A stretch of DNA of 16,377 bases from Longimicrobiales bacterium. GTDB lineage: Bacteria > Gemmatimonadota > Gemmatimonadetes > Longimicrobiales > Gaopeijiaceae. Made by a program: the position numbers and the translations under genes. Shown here piece by piece: positions 1,485 through 16,377 of this stretch. The stretch covers positions 1 through 16,377 of the forward strand of contig JBFFWJ010000018.1 in NCBI GenBank assembly GCA_041570315.1, read 5' to 3'. Every line of letters starts with the position of its first letter. The stretch's first letter is position 1. The notes beneath the pieces are model-generated. The model was not told where the DNA came from, made no database searches, and saw only the letters and a program-made list of their open reading frames with translations.

Positions 1485-1501
1485 GGGCGAGCGTCTCTGC
1501 C

Positions 1502-1837
1502 ATGAAGATGATCATCGCGGTGATCAAGCCGGAGCAGCTTCCCGCCGTCAAGCAGGCTCTTTTTGATGCGGAGATCCGGCACATGACCGCCACGTCGGTG
1601 TTGGGGACGGCGCCTCGCACCGAGCAGCACATGTATCGCGGCGTGAAGAAGGAGGTGTCGCTCTTGAAGCGAGTGCGCCTCGAAGTCGCCGTCAACGACG
1701 CCAACCTGGAGCGAGCGATCGAGGCCATCTCACGCGGGTGCATGGAGTCGGGCGGGGCCGGAAAGATCTTCGTGACGGAGCTCCATGACGTCGTGACCGT
1801 GTGGACCGGCGAGCGCGGCTCGCGGGCGCTGTACTGA
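1502..1837 (+). CDS. glnK: PII nitrogen regulatory protein (GlnK/GlnB family), 111 aa
   Basis: MKMIIAVIKP...YRG...GAGKIFV...TGE aligns with the GlnB/GlnK fold (MKKIEAIIKPFKLDDV...GDGKIFV). It occupies the 3' end of the spurious long ORF 35-1837 and sits immediately after amt. The T-loop is one residue shorter and has Lys/Glu where the modifiable Tyr51 normally sits. Confidence 0.9.
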   Translation: MKMIIAVIKPEQLPAVKQALFDAEIRHMTATSVLGTAPRTEQHMYRGVKKEVSLLKRVRLEVAVNDANLERAIEAISRGCMESGGAGKIFVTELHDVVTVWTGERGSRALY

Positions 1838-1845
1838 GGCACGCC

Positions 1846-3282
1846 ATGGTGGATCGGCCGACCAGCCCACGCGACGTCGTCAGGATGATCAAGGACGAAG
1901 AGATCGCGTTCCTCGACCTGAAGTTCGTAGACCTGTTCGGGACGCTGCAGCACCTGACCCTGCCGGCCGAGCTCGTCGACGAGGCGCTCTTCCGCAACGG
2001 GATGGCGTTCGACGGTTCGTCGGTGCGCGGGTTCACGCGCATCAACCAGAGCGACATGCTCCTGATACCGGACGCCTCGTCCGTCTTCGAAGATCCCTTC
2101 TTCGACGATCCGGCGCTTTCCGTCTTCTGCGATATCGTCGATCCGAACGGACGCTACACCTTTTCCCGCGACCCCCGGTCCGTGGCCCGGCGGGCCGAGC
2201 AGCTGGTTCGCTCGCTCGGCATCGCGGACACCGCGTTCTTCGGCCCGGAGATCGAGTTCTTCGTCTTCGACGACGTCCGCTTCGATCAGGCCACGCAGCA
2301 CGGCTACTTCTTCCTCAACAGCTCGGCCGCTTCCTGGTCGACGGGAGAGCAGGGGGACCGTGCCAACCTGGGCCACCGGGCCGCGCAGAGGGGCGCATAC
2401 TTCTCCGCGCCCCCCGTCGACCAGTACAACAACCTGCGGTCGAAGATCTCGCACGTGCTGCGGCGCGTCGGCCTGCAGCCGGAGCTCCACCACCACGAGG
2501 TCGGGGCCGCCGGCCAGTGCGAGATCGGATTCCGCTTCGGGCCGCTCCTGCAACAGGCCGACGCCTCGATCAAGTACAAGTACGTGGTGAAGAACGTGGT
2601 CAACCGCTACGGGAAGACGGCCACGTACATGCCGAAGCCGCTCCTCCAGGAGAACGGCTCGGGAATGCACCACAACATCAGCCTCGCGAAGGACGGCCGG
2701 AACGTCTTCTACGAGGCCGGCACCTACGGGGACCTGAGCGAGATCGCGGTCCATTTCATCGGCGGGCTGCTCGAGCACGCGGCTGCCCTCTGCGGAATCT
2801 GCTGCCCGACCACCAACTCGTACCGACGCCTCGTGCCCGGCTACGAGGCTCCGATGAACCTGCTGTACTCGGGGCGGAACCGGAGCGCGTGCGTCCGCAT
2901 CCCGACCATGACCGGAGGACCCAAGTCGAAGCGGATCGAGTTCCGCACCCCGGATCCCTCCTGCAATCCCTATCTCAGCTTCGCCGCGATCATGTGCGCC
3001 GGCATCGACGGCATCCGACGGAAGGTCGTGCCGGCGGATCCGGTCGACGAGGACATCTACGAGCTCGCGGCCGGCGAGGCGGGGCGCGGGATCGAGCGGA
3101 CCCCGGGCAGCCTCGATGAGGCCGTCGCCGCGCTCGAGCGCGATCACGACTTCCTCGTCCGGGACGGCGTCTTCACGCCGGACCTCATCGAGACGTGGGT
3201 CGAGCAGAAGAGGGCGAACGAGATCGATTTCGTTCGGCTGCGCCCGCACCCGGGCGAGTTCACTCTTTACTTCAACGTGTAG
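1846..3282 (+). CDS. glnA: Glutamine synthetase type I
   Basis: About 478 aa. The N-terminal beta-grasp motifs FLDLKFVDLFG and MAFDGSS.RGF match GSI, as do the catalytic-domain motifs FGPE.EFF.FD, KPL..ENGSGMH.N.S and NRSA.VRIP. The ATG at 1846 lies 8 nt after the glnK stop. Confidence 0.95.
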   Translation: MVDRPTSPRDVVRMIKDEEIAFLDLKFVDLFGTLQHLTLPAELVDEALFRNGMAFDGSSVRGFTRINQSDMLLIPDASSVFEDPFFDDPALSVFCDIVDPNGRYTFSRDPRSVARRAEQLVRSLGIADTAFFGPEIEFFVFDDVRFDQATQHGYFFLNSSAASWSTGEQGDRANLGHRAAQRGAYFSAPPVDQYNNLRSKISHVLRRVGLQPELHHHEVGAAGQCEIGFRFGPLLQQADASIKYKYVVKNVVNRYGKTATYMPKPLLQENGSGMHHNISLAKDGRNVFYEAGTYGDLSEIAVHFIGGLLEHAAALCGICCPTTNSYRRLVPGYEAPMNLLYSGRNRSACVRIPTMTGGPKSKRIEFRTPDPSCNPYLSFAAIMCAGIDGIRRKVVPADPVDEDIYELAAGEAGRGIERTPGSLDEAVAALERDHDFLVRDGVFTPDLIETWVEQKRANEIDFVRLRPHPGEFTLYFNV

Positions 3283-3302
3283 CGGCTCCCGAAGGATTGA
3301 TC

Positions 3303-4607
3303 ATGGACCAAGCACAGCTCGTGGGGATCTACCTGGGCGTCGGGGCGCTGGCCGTCCTGGCCCTGGTGATCTTCGTGAAGGCGAACATCGTGATCTGCGC
3401 CCCGAACGAAGTCGTCATCATCTCCGGGCGAAAGCGGAGGACGAAGGACGGATCCGTCGTCGGGTACCGCCTGATTCGGGGGGGGCGAGGGTTCAAGCTG
3501 CCGCTTCTCGAGTCCGCCCACAGGCTCACGCTGACGACGCGCACGATCGAGGTGCGGCCGCACAAGGCGTTGTGTCAGGGGATGATCCCCGTCGACATCG
3601 AGGGCCGGGCGAACGTCAAGCTCGCGGGGAGGGAGGAGGACGGCCTGGAGGCTGGAATCGAACGCTTCCTCGGAAAGGGCGTGGACGCGATCGACAAGAC
3701 GGCGCAGCAGGTGCTCGAGGGCGCCCTGCGCGGCGTGGTCGCCGGAGTGCGGCCGGAGGAGGCGAACGAGCGCCGCCTCGAGCTGGCGCAGGAAGTCGGT
3801 CGGAGGGCTCGGGAGGAGCTGTCCGGGCTGGGCATCGTCCTCGACTTCTTCCAGATCCAGGATCTGTCGGACGAGGCCGGCTACCTGGAAGCGATCGGGC
3901 GCCGGAGAAACGCGGAGGTCCAGCGGGACGCGAGGATCGCCGAGGCCGAGGCCGAGGCTGAAGCGCGGCAGGTCTCGGCCGAGCAGAGGCGCCTCGGGAG
4001 AGAAGCCGAGATCGCGGCCGAGCAGCGGATCATCGAGAAGGAGAACGCCCTGGAGGTGGAGCGTGCCAACCTCGCCGCCCTGGAGAACGAGGCTCGGGAG
4101 CGGGCAGGGGTCGCCGGGCAGATCGCGCGGGTGGAGCGGGAGGTGGACCTGGAGACGAAGCGGGCCGAGCTCAGCGAGAGGCGGCACGCCGCCGACACGG
4201 TCATCCCGGCGCGCGCGCGCTCCGAGGCGGATCGCCTGCACGCCGAGGGGCGCGCCGCCCGCATCCGGGAGGAGGGGCGCGCGACGGCGGAGGCCGTGCG
4301 CGTGATGCGGGAAGAGTGGGACGGGGGCGCGACGCAGGATCTGTTCATGATTCGTATGTTCCCGGAGCTGGTCGACAAGGTCACCCGCGTCGTGGCCGAG
4401 AACCTGAGGGTCGACAAGCTGACGATTCTGGACGGGGGCGGTGAGAGCGGGGGCGACGGATTGCCCAACTACGTGCGCAACCTCACGGGGAGCGCGGTCG
4501 CGATGATGGAGCAGATGAAGAACGCGACCGGCGTCGACCTGGCGCGGCTCGCCGAGCGCGGAGGGGAGGAGCGGACGCGCGAGGGGGTGCCGCGGGAGCT
4601 GGGCTAG
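3303..4607 (+). CDS. SPFH/band-7 flotillin-like membrane protein (YqiK/FloT-like)
   Basis: An N-terminal TM helix (LVGIYLGVGALAVLALVIFV) is followed by an SPFH core (VVIISGR...TLTTRTIEV...ANVKL) and a long EA/ER-rich coiled-coil tail (AEAEAEAEARQ...). GAAGGA sits 8 nt upstream of the ATG. Confidence 0.85.
   Translation: MDQAQLVGIYLGVGALAVLALVIFVKANIVICAPNEVVIISGRKRRTKDGSVVGYRLIRGGRGFKLPLLESAHRLTLTTRTIEVRPHKALCQGMIPVDIEGRANVKLAGREEDGLEAGIERFLGKGVDAIDKTAQQVLEGALRGVVAGVRPEEANERRLELAQEVGRRAREELSGLGIVLDFFQIQDLSDEAGYLEAIGRRRNAEVQRDARIAEAEAEAEARQVSAEQRRLGREAEIAAEQRIIEKENALEVERANLAALENEARERAGVAGQIARVEREVDLETKRAELSERRHAADTVIPARARSEADRLHAEGRAARIREEGRATAEAVRVMREEWDGGATQDLFMIRMFPELVDKVTRVVAENLRVDKLTILDGGGESGGDGLPNYVRNLTGSAVAMMEQMKNATGVDLARLAERGGEERTREGVPRELG
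3939..3956 (+). repeat. Tandem hexanucleotide (GCCGAG)x3 encoding the AEAEAE flotillin EA repeat
   Basis: Read directly from the sequence. EA repeats are typical of flotillin domains. Confidence 0.6.
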
Positions 4608-4641: not shown

Positions 4642-5040
4642 ATGACGGAGAGGGAGTCGGCGGAGCACATCCTCCGCGAGCTGCTGAGCAGCCGCGGCCT
4701 GGGCCGCGACAGCCTGCTGTTTCGCGAGTCCCTTCCCGATTTCCTGGAGACGGACGAGGCGGGCGTCGAGACGCTCTCCGCCAATCCCGATCCGTCGGAA
4801 GCGGTCGTCGACGTGTATGAGGGGGGGCATGTCGCGCTGGCCGCGCACGTGGGGCCCGGACTCGCCTTCTCCGAGCAGCGTGACAACCAGTGGCGCGACG
4901 AAGGCCGCGTCGCGGTGGCGGTGCGGCTCGGTGACGTGCTCGATCAGGGCGGGCTGCCGTACCCCGTCGAGTCGGTGATCACGGAGCCCGTCTGGTACGT
5001 GACCCTGCCCGAGGGCCGTGTTCGCGTGACGCGTCTCTAG
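4642..5040 (+). CDS. Hypothetical soluble protein, 132 aa, no recognisable domain
   Basis: It fills the gap between the flotillin and the Cache-STAS genes on the coding strand. GGGAG lies upstream of the ATG. Codon usage looks like that of its neighbours. I find no family match. Confidence 0.4.
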   Translation: MTERESAEHILRELLSSRGLGRDSLLFRESLPDFLETDEAGVETLSANPDPSEAVVDVYEGGHVALAAHVGPGLAFSEQRDNQWRDEGRVAVAVRLGDVLDQGGLPYPVESVITEPVWYVTLPEGRVRVTRL

Positions 5041-5053
5041 CGGGCGCACCGCG

Positions 5054-6922
5054 GTGATCTCCTCGTTCATGCGCGACCGGTCGATCCGGGTCCGCTTGCT
5101 CGTCGTCTTCGCGATCGTCGCGCTCGTTTCGGTGGGAACCGTGGTCTTCGTGGCCAACCGGCTCGGATCGGTCACGCTGGAGCAGCAGGCCTTCGATCGC
5201 CTCACGTCGGTTCGGGAGCTGAAGGGGCAACAGGTCGAGCGCTACTTCCGCACCATCCGGGATCAGGTGCTGACCCACTCGGAGAACCGCATGGTGGTCG
5301 ATGCGGCGCGGGAGTTCGCTTCGGCGGCGTCCGGCCTCCAGGGCGAGTTGAGGGCGCCCTCGGCCGATGAGCGCGATCTCGCGCTTCGCCTCTACTATCA
5401 GCAGGAGTTCCTGCCGAGGCTGCGGGAGCGCGTCGACGACGCGCGGCCCCTGTCCGAGCTTTGGCCGAGCGACCCCCTCGCTCGGTCGCTGCAATACCTG
5501 TTCATCAGCGCCAGCCCGTTCGAGGTCGGCTCGAAGCACCTGCTCGACGACTCGGGAGCGGGCACGCGGTACGACGTGGTGCACCGTCGATATCACCCGC
5601 TTCTCCGGAGCTTCCTGGAGCGCTTCGGCTACTACGACGTCTTCCTCGTCGACGCGGCCACGAGCCGGATCGTGTACTCGGTGTTCAAGGAGGTCGACTT
5701 CGGAACCTCTCTCGAGCGGGGACCCCACCGGAGCTCCAGCCTCGCGACGGCCTACCGGTCCGCTCGGGACTCGGGGCTCACGTCGTTCACCCGCCTCGAG
5801 GACTTCGAGCCGTACACGCCGTCCTACGGCGCCCAGGCCTCGTTCATCGCGTCACCCGTCTACGACGGAACCGAGATGATCGCCGTGCTGGTGTTCCAGC
5901 TTCCGCTCGATCGGATCAACGACATCATGACGAGCGAGCGGGCCTGGCGGGACGTGGGCCTCGGCGCGTCGGGCGAGGCCTACCTGGTGGGACCGGACCG
6001 ACGGCTTCGGACCGAGTCACGCTTCCTCGTGGAGGCGCGGGAGGAGTACCTTCGTGCCGTCGCAGCCGCCGGCGTGGACGAGGGCACGGTGAGGTCGATC
6101 GAGGCGCTGGGCAGCGCGGTGGGGTTGCAGCCGGTGGTGACGGAGGGCGTCGATCAGGCCCTTTCCGGGCTGTCCGGCGTCGGCCGGTTCCTCGACTACC
6201 GGGACGTGGAGGTCTTCTCCAGCTTCCGGCCCCTGGACATCGACGATCTCGACTGGGTGCTCATGAGCGAGATCGACGCGAGCGAGGCGTTGGCTCCGCT
6301 GACCGCGCAGCGCAGGCGCATGCTGCTGGTGCTCGCGGTGTTCCTCCCGCTGCTGGCCGCGCTCGCCTCGTGGTTCGCGGGGAACCTCGTCCGCCCCGTC
6401 CGGGCCCTGTCCCGCAGGGCGGAGGAGCTCGCCCGGGGAGACCTGGACCGAGAGGTCGACGTGTCCCGGGGAGACGAGATCGGGGAGCTCGCGCGGAGCT
6501 TCGAGGCGATGCGCGTCGCGCTGCGCGAGCTGGTCGATCGGCAGAACCGCTCCATCGAAGCGCTGTCGACCCCGCTCATCCCGATCCACGACGATGTCGT
6601 CGTGATGCCCCTGGTCGGCGAGCTCGACGAGGCCCGGTGTGACCGGCTCCGCGAGTCGCTCATGACCCAGCTGCACGCGAAGGGCGCGCGCTGTGCGATC
6701 CTGGACCTGACGGGGGTGCCGAGGCTGGACGACTCCGTCGCGCGGGGCCTCGTGCGCATCGCGCAGACGGCGCGGTTGCTCGGGGCCCGCGCGATCATCT
6801 CCGGGGTCCGCCCCGAGCTCGCCGCGCAGCTGGCCGACGGGGACATCGACACCCAGGGAATCTCGACCGTACGCACGTTGAGGGATGCCATCGACGCGGC
6901 GACGGCGCATGGACGCAGCTGA
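5054..6922 (+). CDS. Membrane-anchored sensor: TM1, periplasmic double-Cache (dCache_1-like), TM2, HAMP, then a C-terminal RsbR-type STAS domain
   Basis: TM1 is LLVVFAIVALVSVGTVVFV. The Cache modules show GYYDVFLVDAATSRIVYSVFKEVDFGTSL and GEAYLVGPDRRLRTESRF...DWVLMSEIDASEALAPL. TM2 is MLLVLAVFLPLLAALASWFAG. The HAMP domain reads PVRALSRRAEELARGDLDREVDVSRGDEIGELARSFEAMR. The STAS domain starts STPLIPIHDDVVVMPLVGELDEARCDR...ILDLTGVPRLDDSVA...IISGVRPELAAQLADGDID, very similar to the STAS domain of the next gene. The start could be 5054 or the ATG at 5069. Confidence 0.82.
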   Translation: MISSFMRDRSIRVRLLVVFAIVALVSVGTVVFVANRLGSVTLEQQAFDRLTSVRELKGQQVERYFRTIRDQVLTHSENRMVVDAAREFASAASGLQGELRAPSADERDLALRLYYQQEFLPRLRERVDDARPLSELWPSDPLARSLQYLFISASPFEVGSKHLLDDSGAGTRYDVVHRRYHPLLRSFLERFGYYDVFLVDAATSRIVYSVFKEVDFGTSLERGPHRSSSLATAYRSARDSGLTSFTRLEDFEPYTPSYGAQASFIASPVYDGTEMIAVLVFQLPLDRINDIMTSERAWRDVGLGASGEAYLVGPDRRLRTESRFLVEAREEYLRAVAAAGVDEGTVRSIEALGSAVGLQPVVTEGVDQALSGLSGVGRFLDYRDVEVFSSFRPLDIDDLDWVLMSEIDASEALAPLTAQRRRMLLVLAVFLPLLAALASWFAGNLVRPVRALSRRAEELARGDLDREVDVSRGDEIGELARSFEAMRVALRELVDRQNRSIEALSTPLIPIHDDVVVMPLVGELDEARCDRLRESLMTQLHAKGARCAILDLTGVPRLDDSVARGLVRIAQTARLLGARAIISGVRPELAAQLADGDIDTQGISTVRTLRDAIDAATAHGRS

Positions 6923-6923
6923 G

Positions 6924-6946
6924 GGACCGGTTTTCTCGCACGGTCC
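6924..6946. other. Short inverted repeat GGACCG(6924-6929)...CGGTCC(6941-6946) with an 11-nt loop, in the 48-nt gap before the globin-RsbR gene
   Basis: Read from the sequence. The stem is weak and no U-tract follows. It may be an attenuator or an RNA-processing site, or nothing. Confidence 0.15.
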
Positions 6947-6970
6947 GTAACCGCAAAGGGTTGAGTTGAC

Positions 6971-7867
6971 ATGTCGCAGAGACAGATGACGGATCCGGGT
7001 CACATCGACCACCGGGAGCTTCTGGCGCTCTACCGCATCTCCGCCGAGGACCTCCAGCGTATCCGGGCCTTCGGGGTCCAGGCCCAGCAGCGGATGGAGG
7101 AGCTGGTGGAACGCTGGTACTCCTGGCTGGAGGGGCTCCCGGACTACCAGGACTTCTTCAGCGATCCGGAGACGCTGGCGCGCGTGCAGAGGCTCCAGAA
7201 GGACTACTGGAATGTCTTCATGAGTGCCGCGGTGGATGACGACTACGTCGCCCGGCGCGTCCTGGTCGGCGAGGCGCACGCCCGGATCGGGTTGCCGCTG
7301 AACACGTATTTCGCCGGCATGAACATGTTTCAGGAGCTCTTCAGCGAGGTGGTGCGCGACGGCGAGTTCGAGGACTCGGAGCGTCAGGCCGCGCTCGACG
7401 CGGTCGTGAAGCTCCTGCACTTCGACACCGCGATCGTCGTCGACACGTACAACCATCTGGTCGAGCAGACGCTCACCGCTCAATCCCGGGCGCTGATGGA
7501 GATGTCGACGCCGGTGACGCAGATCTGGGAGAGCCTCCTCTTTCTGCCGATCGTGGGAATCATCGATTCGCGCCGGTCTCGAGACATCATGAACGCGACG
7601 CTGAGCAAGATCGCGGAGACGCAGGCGCGGGTGTTCATTCTCGACATCAGCGGCGTCGGCGTGGTCGACACCGCCGTGGCGAACCACCTCATCAAGATCA
7701 CCCGAGCGACCAAGCTCATGGGCTGTGAGACGACGATTTCGGGTGTCTCCCCCGCCATCGCGCAGACCATCGTGGACCTCGGGATCGACGTCGGTGAAGT
7801 CAAGACCACCGCGACCATGCGCGACGCTCTGGCGGACGCCGTGCAACTCGTCGGCCGAGACCGGTAG
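6971..7867 (+). CDS. rsbR: RsbR-type stressosome sensor: N-terminal globin-coupled-sensor (protoglobin-like) domain plus C-terminal STAS
   Basis: The N-terminus carries the globin-coupled-sensor signature, including the proximal-His motif: RRVLVGEAHARIGLPLNTYFAG (compare IG.VH.RIGL.P.WY in HemAT-type sensors). The C-terminal STAS (STPVTQIWESLLFLPIVGIIDSRRSRD...ILDISGVGVVDTAVANHL...ISGVSPAIAQTIVDLGID) matches RsbR. AAGGG lies upstream of the ATG. Confidence 0.85.
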   Translation: MSQRQMTDPGHIDHRELLALYRISAEDLQRIRAFGVQAQQRMEELVERWYSWLEGLPDYQDFFSDPETLARVQRLQKDYWNVFMSAAVDDDYVARRVLVGEAHARIGLPLNTYFAGMNMFQELFSEVVRDGEFEDSERQAALDAVVKLLHFDTAIVVDTYNHLVEQTLTAQSRALMEMSTPVTQIWESLLFLPIVGIIDSRRSRDIMNATLSKIAETQARVFILDISGVGVVDTAVANHLIKITRATKLMGCETTISGVSPAIAQTIVDLGIDVGEVKTTATMRDALADAVQLVGRDR

Positions 7868-7881
7868 CCGCCGGGCCGACC

Positions 7882-8373
7882 GTGACGCCCGAAGGCGGTT
7901 TCAGGATCCCGCTCCAGCTCGCGCAGGCATGCGTGGTGGCATCGATCCAGGTCGACCTGGACGATCGAGTGCTCGCCACCTTCCGCGAGGAGCTGCTGGA
8001 TCTCGTCCGGCGCTCGGGCGCCCGGGGCGTGATCCTCGATCTCTCCGGCGTGGCCGTGATGGACACCGACGAGTTCGGAGCCCTCAGGGACACCATGAGG
8101 ATGGCCCGTCTCATGGGCGCCACGTCGATCGTGTCGGGATTGCAGCCGGGCGTCGTCTCCGCGCTGATCGACCTGGGAGCGGACACGGACGGGGTTCTGG
8201 CGACGGCGACGCTGGACGACGCCTTCGCTCGCATGCGGGAGCTTCAGGCTCCGGAGCCCGCCTCGGATGAGGGCGCCGACCACGCTCCCTCGGTCGCCGC
8301 CGAGCTGGAGGCGACCGCTTCCGACGAGCCCGGACGTCCCGAACCGGAAGGCTCCTCGCGTGACGGCGCCTAG
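7882..8373 (+). CDS. rsbS: RsbS-type single-domain STAS stressosome scaffold protein
   Basis: IPLQLAQACVVASIQVDLDDRVLATFREELL...VILDLSGVAVMD...LMGATSIVSGLQPGVVSALIDLG aligns along its full length with B. subtilis RsbS, including the phosphorylatable Ser in DLSGV. It has an acidic C-terminal tail. The start is GTG. Confidence 0.88.
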   Translation: MTPEGGFRIPLQLAQACVVASIQVDLDDRVLATFREELLDLVRRSGARGVILDLSGVAVMDTDEFGALRDTMRMARLMGATSIVSGLQPGVVSALIDLGADTDGVLATATLDDAFARMRELQAPEPASDEGADHAPSVAAELEATASDEPGRPEPEGSSRDGA

Positions 8374-9466
8374 GGCGGTCAAGCGGATCCGGAGCGACCC
8401 GGACGTCAGCCACGCGGTCATCGCGGCGTCGGACTTCGCGCGCGGCCTCGATTTCAGCGAGCTGGACAGCCGGGCCATCGGCACGGTCGTGTCCGAGCTC
8501 GCCACGAACATCCTGAAGTACGCCGTGCACGGCCAGGTGACGATCGAGGAGGTGGGCTCGGGGGACCGCCACGGCATCCAGGTCACCGTGTCCGATCGCG
8601 GGCCCGGGATCGCGAACGTGCGGGAGGCGCTCCAGGATCACTTCAGCTCGAGCGGCACGCTCGGCCTCGGACTTCCCGGGGTTCGTCGCATGGTGGACGA
8701 CTTCGACCTGCAGTCCGAGGTGGGGCGGGGCACGACCGTCGTCGTGCGAAAGTGGAAGAGCCATGGGGCGTCGCGCACCCGTCGTGCGGGCATGCTGCAG
8801 GGCTCTCCCGGGAGCGCCGCGTTCGCCGAGCGGGGCACCGACCGGGGCAGCGAGACGTTCGAAGCCTCCGGTCACCCCGAAGGAGCGTTTCACGTCGTGC
8901 ACGTGAATCGTCCGTGCAGGGGTGAGCTCGTGAGCGGAGACGGCGTTCTCGTGAGCCGCGTGGAAGGGACCGTGCTGATCGTCGTGGTCGACGGGCTGGG
9001 GCACGGGAGAGAGGCCAACCTGGCTGCCAAGGCCGCGACGCGGCTGGTCCGCAAGGAGCCCATGCTCGACCTGGGGCACCTGATGATCCGGCTGGACGAT
9101 CGGCTCCGCGGCACGGTCGGAGCCGCGGTCTCCCTGTGCTCGGTGGATCTCGCTTCCGGTGCCGTGCGATACGCTGCCGTCGGGAATACGGTCCTGCGCA
9201 TCGAGGGCGAGCGGTCGCACAGGATGGCTGCGGCGGCCGGCACGGTGGGAGCCCGCCTCAAGCCGCCTCGAGTGCAGTCGGCCGCCCTCGGCAAGGGGGA
9301 GGTGCTCCTGATCCACACCGACGGGATCTCCGAGCGCCTGAGCCCGCAGGACTATCCCCAGCTCCGGTATCAGAGCCCGGAGACCGTGGCCGAGACGATC
9401 GTGGCGCGCTACGGGAAGCGGCACGACGACGCCACCGTCGTCGTGGCCAGGTTCGGCGGCGCATGA
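8360..9466 (+). CDS. Single ORF fusing an RsbT-type GHKL serine kinase (N-terminal, about 135 aa) to an RsbX-type PP2C phosphatase (C-terminal), joined by a low-complexity linker
   Basis: The RsbT part is IGTVVSELATNILKYA...VTVSDRGPGI...SGTLGLGLPGVRRMVDDFDL...TTVVVRKW. The RsbX part is LVSGDGVLVSRVEGTVLIVVVDGLGHGREANLAA...AVGNTVL...LLIHTDGISE...HDDATVVV (compare B. subtilis RsbX CGDSF...CAVADGLGSG...VGNVRF...IIHTDG...KDDLT). No in-frame stop separates the halves. The GTG at 8360 overlaps the rsbS stop by 14 nt. The six-frame ORF extends upstream to 8267. Confidence 0.78.
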   Translation: MTAPRAVKRIRSDPDVSHAVIAASDFARGLDFSELDSRAIGTVVSELATNILKYAVHGQVTIEEVGSGDRHGIQVTVSDRGPGIANVREALQDHFSSSGTLGLGLPGVRRMVDDFDLQSEVGRGTTVVVRKWKSHGASRTRRAGMLQGSPGSAAFAERGTDRGSETFEASGHPEGAFHVVHVNRPCRGELVSGDGVLVSRVEGTVLIVVVDGLGHGREANLAAKAATRLVRKEPMLDLGHLMIRLDDRLRGTVGAAVSLCSVDLASGAVRYAAVGNTVLRIEGERSHRMAAAAGTVGARLKPPRVQSAALGKGEVLLIHTDGISERLSPQDYPQLRYQSPETVAETIVARYGKRHDDATVVVARFGGA

Positions 9467-11148
9467 TCGAGCTCGGCACGATCTGGGGAGGAGCGGAGGG
9501 GGCCGTGCGGGACGCCCGTCGGAAGGTGCGGGTGACCCTCGAGCGCCTGACCGCCGACGACATGGTCGCGAGTCGGATCGCCTCGGTGACCTCTCAGCTG
9601 TTTCGCGCCCTGGATCGCGGCGCCGAGCCCGGGAGAATCGATGTCCGGCTCGATGACGCCGGGGCGGCGCCGATGCTCGTCCTCGACCTGGTCGGGGCGG
9701 GCGATGAGCTCGACGACGCCGTGGCCGAGCCCTTCTTCGACCGGATCTCGAAGGTGCTCGTGGACGGAGAGCCCGGCGTACGGCTGGGTCTGTACCTGGA
9801 TCTCGCCGTGGCGTCGGCGCTCTCCGAACGGCGCATCGCCGAGATGCGCGCCGTGATCGAGCAGAAGGGACGGGACGCGCTGATGCAGGAGCTCACGGTC
9901 AAGAACCGCGAGCTCCAGGAGTCGTTCGACAACCTCCGCCGGACCACGACGGCGAAGGAGCGCATGGAGAGCGAGCTCAACATCGGGCGCGACATCCAGA
10001 TGAGCATGCTGCCGCTCAAGTTCCCTCCGTTTCCCCACAGAACCGACTTCGCGGTCTTCGCGACCCTGGAGCCGGCGCGGGAGGTCGGGGGAGACTTCTA
10101 CGATTTCTTCCTGATCGACGAGGACCGGTTCTGCTTCTGCGTCGGAGACGTCTCGGGCAAGGGCGTGCCGGCCGCCCTCCTCATGGCGGTCACGAAGACG
10201 CTCATCAAGTCGCGCGCCACGAACGACTTCTCTCCCGCCAGCATCCTGACGCACGTGAACGACGAGATCTCGGAGAACAACGAGTCGGCGATGTTCGTCA
10301 CGCTTTGGCTCGGGATCCTGGACGTCAGCTCGGGTGACCTGGTGTACACGAACGCCGGTCACAACCCGCCCTACCTGAAGCGGGCGGGCGGCGAGCTCGT
10401 GCGGCTGGACGAGCGGCACGGCCCCGTGGTCGGCGCCGTGGACGGTCTCGTCTACTCCGAGGGCTCGGGCCAGCTGAGCGGTGGCGATGTCCTGTTCCTC
10501 TACACCGACGGCGTCACCGAAGCGATGGATCCCGCTGGACGGCTGTACGACGAGGACCGGCTCGTCTCGGTTCTGCAGTCGACGGACTTCGGCTCCGTGG
10601 ACGAGGTCGTCAAGGCGTCCACGGACGACGTGTGGCGCTTTCAGGCGGAGGCCGAGCAGGCCGATGACGTCACGGTGCTCGCGGTCGAGTTCATCGGCAG
10701 GGCAAGGGGCGTAGGCGATCTGCACGTCCTCGACCTGGGCATCCCGAACCGCCTGGAAGAGATCGACACGGTCAACCGGGCGTTCGACGAGTTCGCGGCC
10801 GAGCGCGGGTTGTCAGAGCGGGTCCGCCGAAGCATGAAGCTCGTGTTCGACGACCTGCTCAACAACGTCATGTCGTATGCCTACGAGGACGAGGCCGATC
10901 ACGAGATCCAGGTCCACGTCGAGCTGTCGTCGGACAGGCTCGCGGTCCGCATCAGCGACGACGGGCGTCCCTTCAACCCGTTCGGGCGAACCGCCCCGGA
11001 CACGGCCCTGACGCTGGAGCAGCGAGAGATCGGCGGGCTCGGCATCCATCTCGTCCAGAACCTGATGGACGAGGCTTCGTACACGCGACGCACCGATCGG
11101 AACGTGGTCGTCCTGGTGAAATACCTTTCAGACAACGCAGAGGAGTAG
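9463..11148 (+). CDS. Output-module fusion: unassigned N-terminal regulatory region, RsbU/SpoIIE-type PP2C phosphatase, then a C-terminal RsbW-type GHKL anti-sigma-factor kinase domain
   Basis: The ATG at 9463 overlaps the upstream stop (ATGA). PP2C motifs are present: ELNIGRDIQMSMLP, GGDFYDFF, CVGDVSGKGVPAALLMA, YTNAGHNPPYL, LFLYTDGVTEA, DDVTVLAVEF. The C-terminal kinase domain shows an N-box (DDLLNNVMSYA), G1 (ISDDGRPFNP) and G2 (GGLGIHLV). Comparable PP2C-kinase fusions exist, for example in the multidomain M. tuberculosis Rv1364c. Confidence 0.85.
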   Translation: MIELGTIWGGAEGAVRDARRKVRVTLERLTADDMVASRIASVTSQLFRALDRGAEPGRIDVRLDDAGAAPMLVLDLVGAGDELDDAVAEPFFDRISKVLVDGEPGVRLGLYLDLAVASALSERRIAEMRAVIEQKGRDALMQELTVKNRELQESFDNLRRTTTAKERMESELNIGRDIQMSMLPLKFPPFPHRTDFAVFATLEPAREVGGDFYDFFLIDEDRFCFCVGDVSGKGVPAALLMAVTKTLIKSRATNDFSPASILTHVNDEISENNESAMFVTLWLGILDVSSGDLVYTNAGHNPPYLKRAGGELVRLDERHGPVVGAVDGLVYSEGSGQLSGGDVLFLYTDGVTEAMDPAGRLYDEDRLVSVLQSTDFGSVDEVVKASTDDVWRFQAEAEQADDVTVLAVEFIGRARGVGDLHVLDLGIPNRLEEIDTVNRAFDEFAAERGLSERVRRSMKLVFDDLLNNVMSYAYEDEADHEIQVHVELSSDRLAVRISDDGRPFNPFGRTAPDTALTLEQREIGGLGIHLVQNLMDEASYTRRTDRNVVVLVKYLSDNAEE

Positions 11149-11156
11149 CACGACTC

Positions 11157-11489
11157 GTGAACATGTCGATGAGCGAGAGCGGCGGCATCACCGTGGTCCG
11201 GTTCGACGGGAACCTGGACACGAACACGGCACCCGAGGCGCAGGAACGGTTCGACGAGCTGGCGGGCCAGGGCGTGGGCAAGGTCCTCGTAGACTTCGAG
11301 AGGCTCGACTACATCTCGAGCGCCGGACTGCGCGTCCTCCTCGCGACCGCGAAGAAGCTGCGCTCGGGCGGCGGCAACCTTCGCCTCTGCAATCTCAACG
11401 AGACCGTCGCCGAGGTGTTCGAGATCTCGGGCTTCAGCACGATCTTCGCCGTGTTTCCCACGGAAGCCGAGGCGCTGGAGGGCTTCTGA
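11157..11489 (+). CDS. rsbV: Anti-sigma-factor antagonist (RsbV/SpoIIAA-type STAS), 110 aa
   Basis: ITVVRFDGNLDTNTAPE...VLVDFERLDYISSAGLRVLL...NLRLCNLNETVAEVFEISG carries the conserved phospho-Ser motif DYISSAGL. AGAGGAG sits 11 nt upstream of the GTG at 11157. An ATG at 11163 is an alternative start. Confidence 0.85.
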   Translation: MNMSMSESGGITVVRFDGNLDTNTAPEAQERFDELAGQGVGKVLVDFERLDYISSAGLRVLLATAKKLRSGGGNLRLCNLNETVAEVFEISGFSTIFAVFPTEAEALEGF

Positions 11490-11497
11490 GCGTCGAC

Positions 11498-12901
11498 GTG
11501 GGCGCGGTCCCGCGAGAGGCCGCGGCCGCGGTTCTTCCGGAGGAGTCCCGCGCCCGGTACTCGTGGGACCTCGTGGTTCTGTGCGCGGTCGTGGCGACCG
11601 GTCTGATCATCCCGTTCCAGATCGCGTTCCTCCGGCGCGTGGACGTGCTGGGCAGCGTCGCGGTGTACGTGCTCGATCTCGTGTTCCTCGTCGACATGAG
11701 GCTGAACCTGCGGACGTCCTTTCGGCGTGGAGGCTCCGAGATCCGGGATCGGTCCGAGATCGCACGGCACTACCGACAGGCAGGTTTCCGTACCGATCTC
11801 CTGGGCGTGATCCCCGTGGACCTGCTGGTCCTGGGATCCGGCGCGGCGTTGGGAGGGGTCCCGCTCGCGCTGCTCTTCCGGGTGAACCGGCTGCTCCGGG
11901 TCGCCCGAGCGCTGAGGGGCTTTCGACGCTGGGAGCGGCTCCGGTGGACCAACACCGGATACCTGAGAATCGCCAAGCTCCTGATCGGGGTCTTGCTGCT
12001 GATCCACTGGGTCGCGTGCGGCTGGTTCCTCGTGGCGGTGCTCGAGGGGTTTCCTGCGGATTCGTGGGTGGCCAAGGCGGGGTTGGAGAACGTGGATCGT
12101 GGCAGCCAGTACCTGCGCTCCCTCTATTGGGGCTTCGTGACCACCACGACGGTCGGGTACGGCGACATCACGCCGTCCAAGAACGCGGAGTACGCCTTCA
12201 CCGTGGTGGTGATGATCGTGGGCGCGTCGATGTACGCGCTCATCATCGGCAGCATCGCGTCGCTGGTCAGCTCGATCGACGCGGCGAAGACCGCGTTTTG
12301 GGAGCGGGTCGACGGGGTGGGTCAGTATCTCCGCGCTCGAGGCGTTCCGGAGCCGCTTCAGGAGCAGGTCCGCGACTACTACGAGTACGTCTGGGACCGG
12401 TATCGCGGGGCGGACGCGCGGCAGCTGCTCCGTGACGTCCCCGACTCGATCCGGCTCGAGGTGCTCTTTCATCTGGCGCACGAGCTGATCGAGCGTGTGC
12501 CGCTCTTCCGTCATGGGGACGTGGCCATGCGCAACGCGCTGCTCGCGGCGCTCGAGCCGCGCGTTTTCGTGGCGGGCAGCCACGTGGTCGGCGCAGGCGA
12601 GGTCGCGGACGGGCTCTATTTCGTGAGCAGCGGGCGGCTGGTCATCGTCGATCCGTCGGGCGAGCCGTCCTCGGGCGAGCTCGAGGCCGGTGACTACTTC
12701 GGGGATCTTTCCCTTCTTCTCGGGGAGCGCCGTACCTGTTCGGTGCGAGCCGTCACCCACAGTGACATCTTCTTTCTGCCCAGCGCGGAGTTCGAGCGCC
12801 TCAAGTCCCGCCATCCCGAGTTTCGCGAGGCGCTGCGTGAGATCGCGGCCGGCAAATCCGACAAGCTCGCGGAGTTGGTGGCGAAGGGCTGCATCCTCTA
12901 G
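11498..12901 (+). CDS. Six-TM S4 voltage-sensor-type K+ channel with C-linker and C-terminal cyclic-nucleotide-binding domain (SthK/MloK1/HCN-like)
   Basis: S4 has a regular Arg spacing (FRVNRLLRVARALRGFRRWERLR). The pore helix and selectivity filter read YWGFVTTTTVGYGDITP, and S6 follows. The CNBD beta-roll shows LYFVSSGRLVIV...GDYFGDLSLLLGERRTCSVRAV. The GTG at 11498 lies 9 nt after the rsbV stop. Confidence 0.88.
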   Translation: MGAVPREAAAAVLPEESRARYSWDLVVLCAVVATGLIIPFQIAFLRRVDVLGSVAVYVLDLVFLVDMRLNLRTSFRRGGSEIRDRSEIARHYRQAGFRTDLLGVIPVDLLVLGSGAALGGVPLALLFRVNRLLRVARALRGFRRWERLRWTNTGYLRIAKLLIGVLLLIHWVACGWFLVAVLEGFPADSWVAKAGLENVDRGSQYLRSLYWGFVTTTTVGYGDITPSKNAEYAFTVVVMIVGASMYALIIGSIASLVSSIDAAKTAFWERVDGVGQYLRARGVPEPLQEQVRDYYEYVWDRYRGADARQLLRDVPDSIRLEVLFHLAHELIERVPLFRHGDVAMRNALLAALEPRVFVAGSHVVGAGEVADGLYFVSSGRLVIVDPSGEPSSGELEAGDYFGDLSLLLGERRTCSVRAVTHSDIFFLPSAEFERLKSRHPEFREALREIAAGKSDKLAELVAKGCIL

Positions 12902-12910
12902 GAGCCTGCG

Positions 12911-15481
12911 TTGAACATCGTGATTGCGGACAGTCTGGTTCGGGAGACGCTGAGCCCGGAGCGGCAGTTCCACGGCATCCCGTCGAACCTGGGGGCCCGC
13001 GAGATCGCCCGGCTGATGGGCAGGGGCCGGGCCTACGGCGAGGGACCGTTGCCGTCCCTGGTCCGCGCGGCGGCGGAGCCGGGGGGGCGCACCGGTCTCG
13101 TGCTGCTACGTGAAGTGGCGTCCGCGGACGCGGCGTCCTCGTCGCAGGACCCGCTGTCCGACTGGGTCGATCCGGTCCGGTCCGTCGTCGACCGGGCCCC
13201 CACCTTGGATTGCCCCCGCGGCCGCATTCCGTCGCGGGCGTTGATCGAGGCGATCGCCGAGGTCGCCGGGGTCGACGAGACCGCCGTGGCGGACGGGCGC
13301 GCCGACCTCGGGTTCCTCGTCGTCGGCTGCCAGACGGAGAAGCGGATCCAGGCGATCGCGACATTCCTGCGCGTGGTGCTGGGCTTCGAGCGCGTCGCGG
13401 TGAGCCCTCACCTCGTCGGCAGCTCCACGGCCGAAGCGCACTACGCCGCCCTGCGGCACAACCTCCCACGCTCGGGGGTGCGCGTGCTGCTGGATCTGGC
13501 CGAGGCGGCCCGCTGGGTCGACCTCGACCCGGATGGCGCCGGGCTCGCGGGCGGCGCTCCCTGCGTGATCGATCCGGCCGAAGCGCGCGAGCAGATGGAC
13601 GACGACGCGCAGCGGATCGTTCAGCTGATCTGCATGCACTGGACGCGGGCGGAGCTGCGGGCGCTTGCCGGCGGCTTCAGCGGGAGCATGCTCTTCATCG
13701 CGGACGGGTGGAAGGGAGAGGCGCGTACCGAGCCGATGGTGCTCAAGATCGACGACTTCGCGCAGATGAGGCGCGAGCTCGATGGCTACCACCAGGTGAA
13801 GGACTTCTTCGGCAAGCACGTGCCGACGTTCGGGTACCCGGTGCGGCAGGGCGGTCTGCTCGGCGTCGGCATGGAGCTCGCGGCGATGGAAGGCCGTCCC
13901 ATGACCCTGCAGGATCACTTCGAGAAGGCGGAGACCGAGGGCGCGGTGGCCCATTTTCTCGCCCGACTCGAGAAGTCGTTGGACCTGCTGTCGGGAAAGC
14001 TGTACGGGAACACCCTCGAGCGGAGCAGCGTGGCGCCTTTTCGCAGCTTCGGTCTCCACGTGGAGCAGCAGCTCACCTGGCTGCGCGAGAACGCCACGAT
14101 CATCCTCGGCTACGTCGCGGAGATGGGGCTCTCCCTGGAGCGCGTCGACCTCGACCAGCTCGAGAACGTGGTCCGGCTGGTGAGCAGGAATCCGGATGCC
14201 GTGGAATCCGAAGTGTGTCTGCAGCACGGGGATCTGAACTTCGCCAACGTCATCTGCGACGATGGGGACAACGTCTGGTTCATCGACTGGACGCACAGCG
14301 GCGTGCACCCGCTGGAGCTCGACTTCGCGAAGCTCGAGAGCGACGCGAAGCTCGTCATGAGCAAGGACTTCGACCCCGACGACCTGCCGAGGCTCCGCGT
14401 CTTCGAGGAGTACCTGCTGAGCCAGAAGATCCCGGCGACGGCCGACGAGCTTCCCGACGCGCTCAAGTTCGCCAAGTGGGATCTGCGCTTCAGGAAGATC
14501 CTCGACGCCGTGCGTCTGATCAGGCGGTGTTGCTTCCGCCTCAAGAAGGACGACGACTGGCTGGTCTACCGGGTCGCTTTGCTGCGCTACGCCATGCATA
14601 CCCTCAGCTTCGACCAGCGGAGAGGCCGGGGGGAGTGCGACGAGACGCAGCTGATGTACGCGCTGTACTCGTGCGAGTCGCTCTCGCTGACGCTCGTCGC
14701 CGACGACTTCCACCTGAAGATCCGGGCCGAGCGGCCGGCGTCGTATCCCGAGCGGCAGCGGATCTCGATCGACGAATCGCTGTGGGTTCTGGACTGCGAG
14801 GAGTACGACCCGCCGTACCACGTCGATCCTGCGGTCCTGGAGGCGGGGCGCGACCGCCGCGACGACGGATGGGCGGATCCGGAGGACATCGATGCCGCCG
14901 CGCTCGCCGAGCGAGCGGCCCGGTTCCGCGACGGCGGCGGGCGCCCGCTCAACCCGCGTGGGCGGACGGGGATCGCGGGGCGCGGCCTGCTGGGGCTGTG
15001 GGGCGCCAACGCTTCGGTCGTGGGGGTGGTGCTGCGGACCAGCCGGATCACCGGGGAGCTGCAGATCCTGCTCGGGTCCCGAGAGGACGACACCGCGCTC
15101 GCGCTGCCCATGGGCTTCGTGCTGCCCGACGAGGAGCCGGAGCACGGGGTGCTGCGGGTGATGGAGGTCGAGACGGGATGGCGGCCGGGGAGCACGCCGG
15201 TTCCGCTCAGTGAAGGGTACGCCTACGATGCGCGCCAGACGGATCACGCCTGGGTCGAGCGTCGGGCGTACCTCTTCGATCCGGCCGAGGAGGAGGCCCC
15301 GGATCTCTTCGACCCGGCTGGCGACCTCGAAGAGGTGTCGTGGTGGCCGATGAGCATCGAGACCATGACCCGGGTTCCGGCGGGTCAGGCGCCGGTGATC
15401 CACGAGGCGCTGGGGGCGGCGCGCGCGGCCGGGCGAATCGACGCCGAGCTGGCTGAGCAGCTGATGCGGAGGGCCGTGTGA
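12911..15481 (+). CDS. 856-aa three-domain protein: an unassigned N-terminal domain of about 215 aa, an APH/choline-kinase-like (protein-kinase-like fold) phosphotransferase domain, and a C-terminal NUDT9-homology (ADP-ribose pyrophosphatase-like) Nudix domain with a degenerate Nudix box
   Basis: TTG start, with GGAG 6 nt upstream. Kinase motifs are present: a Gly-rich loop (ALAGGFSGSMLF), a Lys (MVLKID), a catalytic loop (LQHGDLNFANVI) and an Mg-binding IDW (VWFIDWTHSG). The NUDT9 signatures are LNPRGRTGIAGRGLLGLWGANA (compare NUDT9 [22 protein letters not shown]), GYAYDARQTDHAWVERRAY (compare GYVDDPRNTDNAWMETEA) and a C-terminal VSWW...APVIHEAL. The Nudix box reads GFVLPDEEPEHGVLRVMEVETGW, that is RE-x-x-EE changed to RV-x-x-VE. 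Confidence 0.8.
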   Translation: MNIVIADSLVRETLSPERQFHGIPSNLGAREIARLMGRGRAYGEGPLPSLVRAAAEPGGRTGLVLLREVASADAASSSQDPLSDWVDPVRSVVDRAPTLDCPRGRIPSRALIEAIAEVAGVDETAVADGRADLGFLVVGCQTEKRIQAIATFLRVVLGFERVAVSPHLVGSSTAEAHYAALRHNLPRSGVRVLLDLAEAARWVDLDPDGAGLAGGAPCVIDPAEAREQMDDDAQRIVQLICMHWTRAELRALAGGFSGSMLFIADGWKGEARTEPMVLKIDDFAQMRRELDGYHQVKDFFGKHVPTFGYPVRQGGLLGVGMELAAMEGRPMTLQDHFEKAETEGAVAHFLARLEKSLDLLSGKLYGNTLERSSVAPFRSFGLHVEQQLTWLRENATIILGYVAEMGLSLERVDLDQLENVVRLVSRNPDAVESEVCLQHGDLNFANVICDDGDNVWFIDWTHSGVHPLELDFAKLESDAKLVMSKDFDPDDLPRLRVFEEYLLSQKIPATADELPDALKFAKWDLRFRKILDAVRLIRRCCFRLKKDDDWLVYRVALLRYAMHTLSFDQRRGRGECDETQLMYALYSCESLSLTLVADDFHLKIRAERPASYPERQRISIDESLWVLDCEEYDPPYHVDPAVLEAGRDRRDDGWADPEDIDAAALAERAARFRDGGGRPLNPRGRTGIAGRGLLGLWGANASVVGVVLRTSRITGELQILLGSREDDTALALPMGFVLPDEEPEHGVLRVMEVETGWRPGSTPVPLSEGYAYDARQTDHAWVERRAYLFDPAEEEAPDLFDPAGDLEEVSWWPMSIETMTRVPAGQAPVIHEALGAARAAGRIDAELAEQLMRRAV

Positions 15482-16284: not shown

Positions 16285-16377
16285 GCCATGTTGCGTCCGT
16301 TCAAGCCCGGGGACTACATTTCGGGCGCCGGCACCGAGGGTAGCGTGCGCGAGATCGAGCTCTTTACGACCTTGCTC
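16264..16377 (+). CDS. MscS-family mechanosensitive channel fragment (end of TM3 and start of the beta-domain). It is in frame with, and fused to, the IMPase-like ORF.
   Basis: DLAAGVLLAMLRPFKPGDYISGAGTEGSVREIELFTTLL aligns residue for residue with E. coli MscS [41 protein letters not shown]. The upstream hydrophobic TM1/TM2 that MscS requires is absent. This stretch has more T-ending codons (ttg, cgt, att, ggt, ttt) than the rest of the window. Confidence 0.55.
   Translation, partial: MAAGVLLAMLRPFKPGDYISGAGTEGSVREIELFTTLL

Follow-up and report, generated by a model that had tools for sequence, protein, structure and literature searches.

A probable Vibrio-type stressosome cassette with a predicted phospho-switch on RsbV as its endpoint and no sigma factor gene in cis

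A stressosome joined to a partner-switching pair

We analysed a 16,377-nucleotide (nt) stretch of a Longimicrobiales genome (contig JBFFWJ010000018.1 of GenBank assembly GCA_041570315.1), here called the window. At 5054–11489 it holds six tightly packed genes, all on the + strand and with catalytic motifs and phospho-acceptor residues intact. They encode two RsbR sensors, RsbS, a fusion of RsbT with RsbX, an output protein that joins a PP2C phosphatase to an RsbW-like kinase domain, and the small STAS protein RsbV. We read the six genes as a portable, self-contained stressosome cassette of the Vibrio type, in which the signal would run down to a phospho-switch on RsbV, with no sigma factor gene in cis. 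We give this reading a probability of roughly 75%, a figure that covers the identity of the cassette and the flow of signal as far as RsbV, with the terminal partner excluded. The parts of the cassette are as follows.

5054–6922, + strand: membrane RsbR paralogue (first transmembrane segment, dCache-like domain, second transmembrane segment, HAMP, STAS; Pfam)
6971–7867, + strand: globin RsbR (Protoglobin and STAS; Pfam)
7882–8373, + strand: RsbS, a single STAS domain (Pfam)
8360–9466, + strand: RsbT::RsbX fusion (Pfam HATPase_c/HATPase_c_2 and SpoIIE)
9463–11148, + strand: PP2C-RsbW output protein, 561 residues (Pfam SpoIIE and HATPase_c_2)
9463–9858, + strand: N-domain of the output protein, residues 1–132, a predicted RsbT/RsbW-like pseudo-kinase
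9859–10044, + strand: coiled-coil linker of the output protein, about residues 133–194, conserved, joining the N-domain to the PP2C domain
10045–10704, + strand: PP2C (SpoIIE-type) domain of the output protein (Pfam SpoIIE)
10738–11148, + strand: RsbW-like Ser kinase or anti-sigma-type domain of the output protein (Pfam HATPase_c_2)
11157–11489, + strand: RsbV-type STAS protein (Pfam STAS, E 3e-25)

The window, with a G+C content of 65–73%, carries 14 genes on one strand, separated by intergenic gaps of -14 to +65 nt, and G+C by codon position favours the + strand frames as coding throughout. Within the cassette, the GTG start of rsbT::X overlaps the rsbS stop by 14 nt, and rsbT::X overlaps the output gene by 4 nt. 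An earlier note on this DNA, made from its letters and open reading frames (ORFs) alone, had placed the start of the output gene at 9136, the beginning of the longest ORF. We rejected that start; the real one is at 9463, an ATG that overlaps the stop codon of the preceding gene and with which every homologue begins. A promoter and terminator scan found no sigma-70-like promoters and only intragenic terminator-like matches, and is uninformative at 68% G+C.

The same note had seen no sigma factor gene in the window, and both the Pfam scan and the ORF translations agree. The case that it had set against its own reading, a sigB-like gene immediately outside the window, did not arise: neither the window nor the rest of the stretch covered on a 47.7-kb contig of the same organism, from ∼5 kb upstream of the cassette to ∼10 kb downstream, contains a sigma70-family gene, and so no cognate sigma gene shares the operon. 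None was found within 10 kb of the cassette in about ten to a dozen related loci, nor in the stretches read of Flammeovirga, ∼15 kb around its cassette. The locus is thus a stressosome plus a partner-switching pair without a sigma gene in cis, and the absence is supported across the cassette family.

This situation is itself already known, and to frame it as unusual would be weak. The sigB operon of eight genes is confined to Bacillales, and the four-gene rsbRSTX module without sigB is widespread and comes with varied output modules; for modules with a globin-coupled RsbR, eleven downstream architectures are on record, PP2C phosphatases included (PMC9237108). Non-sigma outputs of partner switching were likewise known, as the earlier note had said (PMC9237108, PMC8256260), SypE/SypA being a further example (PMC8256260). 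The interest of the locus rests mainly on another feature, a lead to an adaptor domain at the head of the output protein.

Sensors and STAS core

Two different RsbR sensors had been proposed, and Pfam and PDB matches uphold both: a membrane dCache-HAMP-STAS protein and a haem-globin protein, each with a variable N-terminal sensor and an RsbR-type C-terminal STAS domain. The membrane RsbR has Pfam matches to HAMP (1.5e-17) and STAS (2.7e-13), and hydrophobic segments at residues 9–40 and 420–446 flank its dCache-like domain. Its STAS domain matches that of Listeria RsbR in the PDB sequences (E 3e-20). Where Listeria RsbR has its phospho-site threonines T175 and T209, the membrane protein has Asp560 and Gln592; it may be a permanently ‘phosphorylated’ subunit that cannot be reset.

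The globin RsbR (Pfam Protoglobin 1.3e-30, plus STAS) matches Vibrio vulnificus RsbR, 7o0i_B, with E 2e-97 over 283 residues, at ∼58% identity as counted from the printed alignment. We place it in the cytoplasm and take it as the orthologue of that oxygen-sensing protein. Both phospho-site threonines, Thr234 and Thr266, are retained. So is the motif GEAHARIGLP (AHARxGLP), which we take to hold the proximal His.

RsbS carries an acidic C-terminal tail after its single STAS domain. Its best PDB matches are RsbS of V. vulnificus (E 4e-17) and of Listeria (E 1e-16). A phosphorylatable residue, Thr62, occupies the phospho-Ser position, where the window's MDT aligns with IDS of Listeria and the 9o4r chain reads IDA.

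RsbT::RsbX, the output enzyme and RsbV

The earlier note had listed a complete RsbR/RsbS/RsbT set together with a PP2C-RsbW fusion and RsbV. All of these are present, but RsbT is not free-standing. The gene directly after rsbS encodes 368 residues, with an RsbT Ser/Thr kinase at ∼9–134, a linker, and an RsbX-type PP2C, the feedback phosphatase of such modules, at ∼181–365. Both halves keep their motifs in eight orthologues from distant lineages: the GHKL kinase motifs (N-box E46 and N50; G1 D79, G81 and G83; G2 G99–G104) and the PP2C Asp residues (D194, D211, D321, D356 and D357) are invariant. In the PDB the PP2C half matches Moorella MtX (3zt9, E 5e-22) and Bacillus subtilis RsbX (3w40, E 1e-9), and the matches of the fusion also include SpoIIAB. 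The fused architecture was found in all of the best 120 homologue clusters.

The output protein had been described as an ‘RsbU(PP2C)-RsbW’ fusion. That it unites a SpoIIE-type PP2C (Pfam E 5e-51) and an RsbW-type kinase (HATPase_c_2, E 1.5e-24) in one chain is correct; the RsbU label is not, as there is no four-helix RsbU_N domain. The PP2C metal-binding motifs (GGDFYD, GDVSGKG, YTDG and ADD) are invariant across 15 homologues, as are the N-box N468, DDG (G1) and GGLG (G2) of the RsbW-like domain. The latter matches RsbW in the PDB (6m36_A, E 5e-9), and NCBIfam RsbW models match it below their cut-offs. The PP2C-kinase structure of Rv1364c (3ke6) matches the output protein both by sequence (E 1.4e-14) and by fold.

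RsbV matches SpoIIAA and RsbV structures, and its Ser55 aligns with Ser58 of SpoIIAA; S54 and S55 are invariant in eight orthologues. Ser55 is the predicted phospho-acceptor, and by sequence the adjacent RsbV would be the obvious substrate of the RsbW-like kinase domain. The locus thereby has an RsbV-type STAS protein with its phospho-Ser, a PP2C and an RsbW-type kinase, the two enzymes being in one chain.

The N-terminal domain of the output protein

The first 130 residues of the output protein have no match among Pfam and NCBIfam models. An AlphaFold2 model of residues 1–192 (mean predicted local distance difference test score 85) has an alpha/beta domain and, after it, a long helix (137–181), and fold comparison of the model gives a GHKL-like fold resembling RsbW and RsbT. 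The Asn of the N-box that binds Mg-ATP is missing in 23/23 aligned members of the N-domain family, and the window's copy has also lost the glycine motifs of G1 and G2. With such a fold and without these motifs, the N-domain is best modelled as an RsbT/RsbW-like pseudo-kinase, not as RsbU_N. Two other input domains were tried and rejected: RsbU_N (by Pfam, NCBIfam and fold comparison) and a receiver domain (no Response_reg match by Pfam in the output protein). Linker residues R137, L140, E143, N148, E150 and L151 are among those invariant in the 15 homologues.

The domain matters because of a gap in what is known of stressosomes. Outside Bacillales they lack sigB, most of their downstream proteins have no RsbU_N, and in most the step from RsbT to output lacks an explanation; an interaction between VvRsbT and VvD1 could not be shown (PMC9237108). 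The cassette offers a concrete candidate for the link, namely a domain of the RsbT/RsbW fold with a conserved linker, at the N-terminus of the gene that follows rsbX.

The D1-like hybrid kinase of Vibrio sp. THAF191d (L184 9219–13515) is encoded after rsbX and begins with 160 residues that have no Pfam assignment. It shares with the window's output protein the linker motif R-x2-L-x2-E-x4-N-x-E-L: the segment SEKTRDDLMHELQIKNRELA, which sits before its PAS domain, matches all six invariant linker residues.

Spread of the N-domain

We searched 1.84 billion cluster representatives with a profile of the N-domain. At E ≤ 1e-3 it matched 423 proteins, of which 198 reached E ≤ 1e-10. Among the best 150 listed, the domain starts at residue 1 or within a few tens of residues of it. 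The same N-domain heads several kinds of output enzyme. In 80 long representatives carrying it, the domain was followed by HisKA and HATPase_c in 66 and by SpoIIE in 10; of all 80, 32 also have a receiver domain, 11 have Hpt, and five carry the HATPase_c_2 of the window type. One GGDEF-HD protein and one nucleotide cyclase were other architectures. In every fetched locus with upstream DNA, the N-domain ORF starts at most ∼130 nt from the end of an RsbX-type ORF, and in most of them the two overlap by 4 nt. One such hybrid histidine kinase lies directly after rsbS-rsbT-rsbX, again with a 4-nt overlap.

For a baseline, scanning with the generic patterns EVGGDFYD and TDG[VI]TEAM yielded 80 unrelated PP2C-HATPase loci, mostly from Firmicutes. 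These match the output protein only from about residue 140, and none of 45 unrelated PP2C-HATPase fusions has the N-domain. Other searches added little: a metagenome scan with the N-terminal alignment gave ∼14 true orthologues, most on short contigs, a word-index search with the N-domain profile gave 4 fragments, the index being ill-suited to so divergent a domain, and tblastn of a histidine-kinase-type N-domain against plasmids gave no match.

A less biased set consisted of loci of cultured bacteria fetched by RsbR similarity alone. Seven were examined (L185–L191), spanning four phyla: Salipiger, Chondrinema, Sphingomonas, Phaeobacter, Deinococcus radiodurans pMP1, Xanthomonas vasicola and Streptomyces. 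The order RsbR-RsbS-RsbT-(RsbT-like::RsbX)-output holds in all seven. An RsbT-like domain opens the output protein in five of them; its ATP motifs are kept in four and degenerate in Chondrinema. Up to three consecutive RsbT-like domains occur in these loci.

The RsbT-like N-domain is accordingly our candidate for the missing link between stressosome and output. A bolder version holds that it is a general and so far overlooked means of coupling in many stressosomes without RsbU_N, with RsbX and the output enzymes each owning a copy, and that the endpoint of the cassette is a free phospho-controlled STAS protein whose targets would be ion-transport proteins instead of transcription. We regard this as speculative and doubtful. 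If it were true, RsbX and the output enzymes would be sequestered directly on the STAS core or paired with RsbT, and this would explain how one sensing core can drive PP2Cs, histidine kinases, diguanylate cyclases and nucleotide cyclases.

Proposed signal path

Signalling would begin when oxygen or haem state and a periplasmic ligand alter the STAS core made of the two RsbR sensors and RsbS. We propose that this assembly is tethered to the membrane; the membrane RsbR may belong to the same complex. RsbT::RsbX would phosphorylate Thr62 of RsbS and Thr234 and Thr266 of the globin RsbR, and later reset them. The signal would then enter the output protein by way of its RsbT-like N-domain, which might either pair with the RsbT domain or dock on the STAS core in the place of RsbT. 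The linker could switch the output enzyme between a PP2C mode and a kinase mode, as RsbT does for RsbU of B. subtilis, and the end result would be the phosphorylation state of Ser55 of RsbV.

Several points weigh against this reading or parts of it. The dCache_1 match of the membrane RsbR (E 4e-8) falls under the Pfam gathering score. Residues 1–118 of the Vibrio D1-like kinase are not significantly similar to the N-domain, the best match being in register but with E 0.03, and it is the D1-type protein that has been studied experimentally as an output. The role given to the N-domain in signalling draws on its modelled fold, its position and gene order. Finally, most of the loci with a window-type N-domain were reached by way of output-protein homologues, and part of the context they share is therefore inherited.

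Comparison with known systems

One of the closest likenesses is to the oxygen-sensing stressosome of V. vulnificus and V. brasiliensis, which shares the globin RsbR (∼58% identity) and provides the best PDB match of RsbS. It too has an RsbX-type phosphatase right after RsbT, no sigB, and an output without RsbU_N (PMC9237108). The window differs from it as follows: RsbT and RsbX form one polypeptide, there is a second, membrane-bound dCache-HAMP RsbR, and the output is a PP2C-RsbW fusion plus RsbV, where Vibrio has a hybrid histidine kinase and a protein with receiver and HD domains.

With the RsbRST-RsbUVW-sigmaB pathway of B. subtilis and Listeria, the cassette has in common the STAS core, RsbT, RsbX, a PP2C acting on RsbV, an RsbW-type kinase and the phospho-acceptors. 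It lacks both sigB and RsbU_N, having the N-domain of RsbW/RsbT-like fold instead; it fuses RsbU with RsbW and RsbT with RsbX, and for sensors it has a haem globin and a periplasmic dCache-like domain.

The layout of the output module recalls HsbR-HsbA of Pseudomonas aeruginosa and CrsR-CrsA of Shewanella oneidensis, HsbR and CrsR being the nearest PP2C-kinase fusions so far characterised. HsbR and CrsR combine a receiver, a PP2C and a kinase/anti-sigma domain in one protein paired with a STAS antagonist, whose phospho-state both enzymatic domains set, again with no sigma gene in cis (PMC6482189). The window has the PP2C and kinase/anti-sigma domains in one chain with an adjacent STAS gene and has no N-terminal receiver; its input is an RsbT-like pseudo-kinase domain, as modelled, after a stressosome module, whereas theirs is a receiver fed by an Hpt protein.

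Further relatives are SypE, which has the order kinase-receiver-PP2C, and Rv1364c, with PAS-PP2C-kinase-STAS in a single chain. In SypE-SypA (Vibrio fischeri) and Rv1364c (Mycobacterium tuberculosis), as is predicted for the cassette, a kinase and a phosphatase act on an output STAS domain (PMC8256260). Domain order and inputs differ from those of the window, and neither system is coupled to a stressosome.

The modules of D. radiodurans pMP1, Sphingomonas, Phaeobacter, Salipiger, Xanthomonas and Streptomyces resemble the cassette in fusing an RsbT-like domain to an RsbX-type PP2C. They have a separate RsbT, which the window lacks, and their outputs are for the most part histidine kinases; in most of them the N-domain of the output retains the ATP-binding motifs, whereas that of the window is degenerate.

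In the searchable literature we found no description of an RsbT::RsbX fusion, of an RsbT-like N-domain on output proteins, or of stressosomes associated with ion-transport genes. Earlier descriptions of each are possible, as the search was not exhaustive.

Recurrence of the cassette

Homologues of the output protein number in the thousands; the best 120 of them span 72–100% of its length, the shorter ones being fragments, at 50–100% identity; named organisms among these 120 are metagenome-assembled genomes of Planctomycetota and Halieaceae, the closest being from Planctomycetota. A five-gene core (globin RsbR, RsbS, RsbT::X, output protein and RsbV) recurs in relatives of the window, in Gammaproteobacteria of the Halieaceae type and in Bacteroidota. 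The cassette is thus conserved across at least three phyla.

Among cultured bacteria, it is carried by Flammeovirga kamogawensis YS10, a member of the Bacteroidota, in the form globin RsbR, RsbS, RsbT, RsbX, output protein and RsbV; D. radiodurans pMP1 has the related R-S-T-(RsbT-like::RsbX)-output layout. The F. kamogawensis output protein is 36% identical to that of the window over 99% of its length. Its RsbX is unannotated and ends at the origin of the record, and the gene after RsbV is an unrelated one on the other strand.

What surrounds the cassette depends on lineage. In the window's own lineage (54–100% identity in the output protein) the array amtB-glnK-glnA-SPFH-dCache RsbR-globin RsbR-RsbS-RsbT::X-output-RsbV is kept, and 3′ of RsbV come a cyclic-nucleotide-gated (CNG) channel gene, sometimes a GAF-PP2C gene, then kinase-NUDT9, inositol-monophosphatase-family (IMPase) and TrkA_N genes. 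The channel gene directly follows rsbV in L089, L098 and L175–L179 and is absent in L087 (where the remainder of the array is kept), L090, L005/L006 and Flammeovirga. The kinase-NUDT9 gene is conserved only in this lineage. The gammaproteobacterial lineage (∼50% identity) has the five-gene core without the dCache RsbR. There, in three loci, a Na/Pi cotransporter gene (PF02690) begins right at the rsbV stop or overlaps it (L005 11712–13633, L006 11724–13645 and L172 11679–14742), and L102 has a Na/Pi cotransporter gene directly after rsbV. In L090/L091 the six-gene cassette has neither channel nor transporter neighbours. In L101 it lies near a transposase, a TrkA_N gene, an ammonium transporter and a type-III glutamine synthetase, in an order that differs from that of the window.

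The earlier note had looked to the channel and kinase-NUDT9 proteins as possible targets of the RsbW-like domain. As a general account this is not supported: neighbours vary by lineage (a Na/Pi cotransporter in some loci, nothing of the kind in others), and a nearer substrate is at hand in RsbV. The downstream genes are not conserved with the cassette and are therefore unlikely to be the general, let alone universal, target of that domain.

The terminal partner

What lies beyond RsbV is the least certain part of the scheme. By analogy with HsbA and SypA, RsbV in one of its phospho-states may act on a lineage-specific partner other than a sigma factor; HsbA, for instance, can also take FlgM or the cyclase HsbD as its partner (PMC6482189). 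We would place this not far short of an even chance. Candidate partners here are the co-operonic ion-transport and nucleotide-signalling proteins.

A narrower form of this proposal, direct control of the neighbouring transporter or channel, takes up part of that estimate and is in our view quite unlikely. RsbV would regulate the adjoining protein (the CNG-type channel here, the Na/Pi cotransporter in the gammaproteobacterial lineage) as a detachable, phospho-controlled counterpart of the STAS domains that SLC26/SulP transporters have as an integral component (PMC8256260). A gap of 8 nt separates rsbV from the channel gene, and the adjacencies described above, channel or cotransporter next to rsbV in two lineages, are what such control would lead one to expect, as are the recurring transport-related neighbours (TrkA_N, ammonium transporter and SPFH). 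Against it, L087 lacks the channel and keeps the rest of the array, and in L090/L091 and Flammeovirga no transporter gene adjoins rsbV. Adjacency inside one lineage may reflect inherited synteny only, and we came upon no publication in which a free STAS protein controls either a CNG channel or a Na/Pi cotransporter.

Alternatively, the RsbW-like domain could be an anti-sigma factor: it would hold back a sigma factor whose gene lies elsewhere, and binding of unphosphorylated RsbV would set that factor free. Sequence comparison matches the domain to RsbW and SpoIIAB, and a PP2C-kinase fusion beside a STAS gene is the layout of HsbR and CrsR, both of which bind and sequester RpoS, encoded in trans (PMC6482189). 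In 54 neighbour ORFs of 45 unrelated PP2C-HATPase fusions, Sigma70 was not among the 25 commonest of 58 Pfam families; absence of a nearby sigma gene therefore looks usual for such proteins. Even so, no sigma gene was found nearby in any locus, and the cassette spans relatives named as Planctomycetota, Gammaproteobacteria and Bacteroidota. To our knowledge these groups share no RpoS or SigB-type sigma factor, and a common sigma target is therefore not obvious. On balance we think a sigma factor in trans rather improbable. The rest of the probability goes to other or mixed outputs.

It is also possible that the cassette has no functional link to its flanks, being an autonomous unit inserted in a conserved array, with the channel, kinase-NUDT9, IMPase and amtB-glnK-glnA genes there as lineage synteny. 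That the cassette stands alone in L090/L091 and Flammeovirga, lies beside a transposase in L101, and has different neighbours in different lineages all fits. The array amtB-glnK-glnA-SPFH-cassette-(channel)-kinase/NUDT9-IMPase is nevertheless kept down to 54–56% identity of the output protein, its intergenic gaps are very short or negative, and the reordered ammonium transporter, glutamine synthetase and TrkA_N genes of L101 are not expected from inherited synteny alone. We hold this to be a distinct possibility, though below an even chance. The linkage to amtB-glnK-glnA-SPFH, taken with the L101 neighbours, may point to a connection with nitrogen or ion homeostasis; the repeated pairing with ion-transport and nitrogen-assimilation genes is correlative, and a role there could be post-translational.

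Flanking genes and minor observations

The remaining features of the window are these.

177–1484, + strand: amtB (translation and Pfam table of the same contig)
1502–1837, + strand: glnK (translation and Pfam table of the same contig)
1846–3282, + strand: glnA (translation and Pfam table of the same contig)
3303–4607, + strand: SPFH/flotillin gene (Pfam)
4642–5040, + strand: ORF of 132 residues without Pfam match, between the SPFH gene and the dCache RsbR gene
11498–12901, + strand: cyclic-nucleotide-binding protein of K+-channel type, outside the conserved cassette (Pfam Ion_trans and cNMP_binding)
12911–15481, + strand: APH/TCAD9-type kinase fused to a NUDT9-like NUDIX domain (Pfam; precomputed NUDT9_N match)
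From 15478: IMPase gene, only its start in the window

The amtB-glnK-glnA-SPFH genes (177–4607) lie directly upstream of the cassette on the same strand and are kept with it down to 54% identity of the output protein (window, L087, L089 and L179). The 132-residue ORF is a gene call on L002 as well; it is missing at that position in L087, L089 and L179. Downstream, the channel, kinase-NUDT9, IMPase and TrkA_N genes (11498–16377; L002 15777–18010) form a conserved array with stop/start overlaps between several of the genes. Beyond the window, on the 47.7-kb contig, come IMPase, TrkA_N, LemA, DUF2207 and prephenate dehydrogenase genes. The pairing of a channel gene with a NUDT9-like gene is reminiscent of eukaryotic TRPM2.

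Some relatives have broken copies of cassette genes. In L174 (8916–11939) RsbT and RsbX are split into two ORFs and a STAS protein is truncated to 75 residues, and in L175 (340–1838) RsbT::X is disrupted; these may be assembly frameshifts or decay. In L172 and L174, of the gammaproteobacterial lineage, a convergent PAS-STAS gene follows. L087 carries, upstream of amtB, a lone HATPase_c_2 (RsbW-like) gene of 153 residues on the - strand (408–869) and a bacterial globin gene, a pair with no counterpart in the window.

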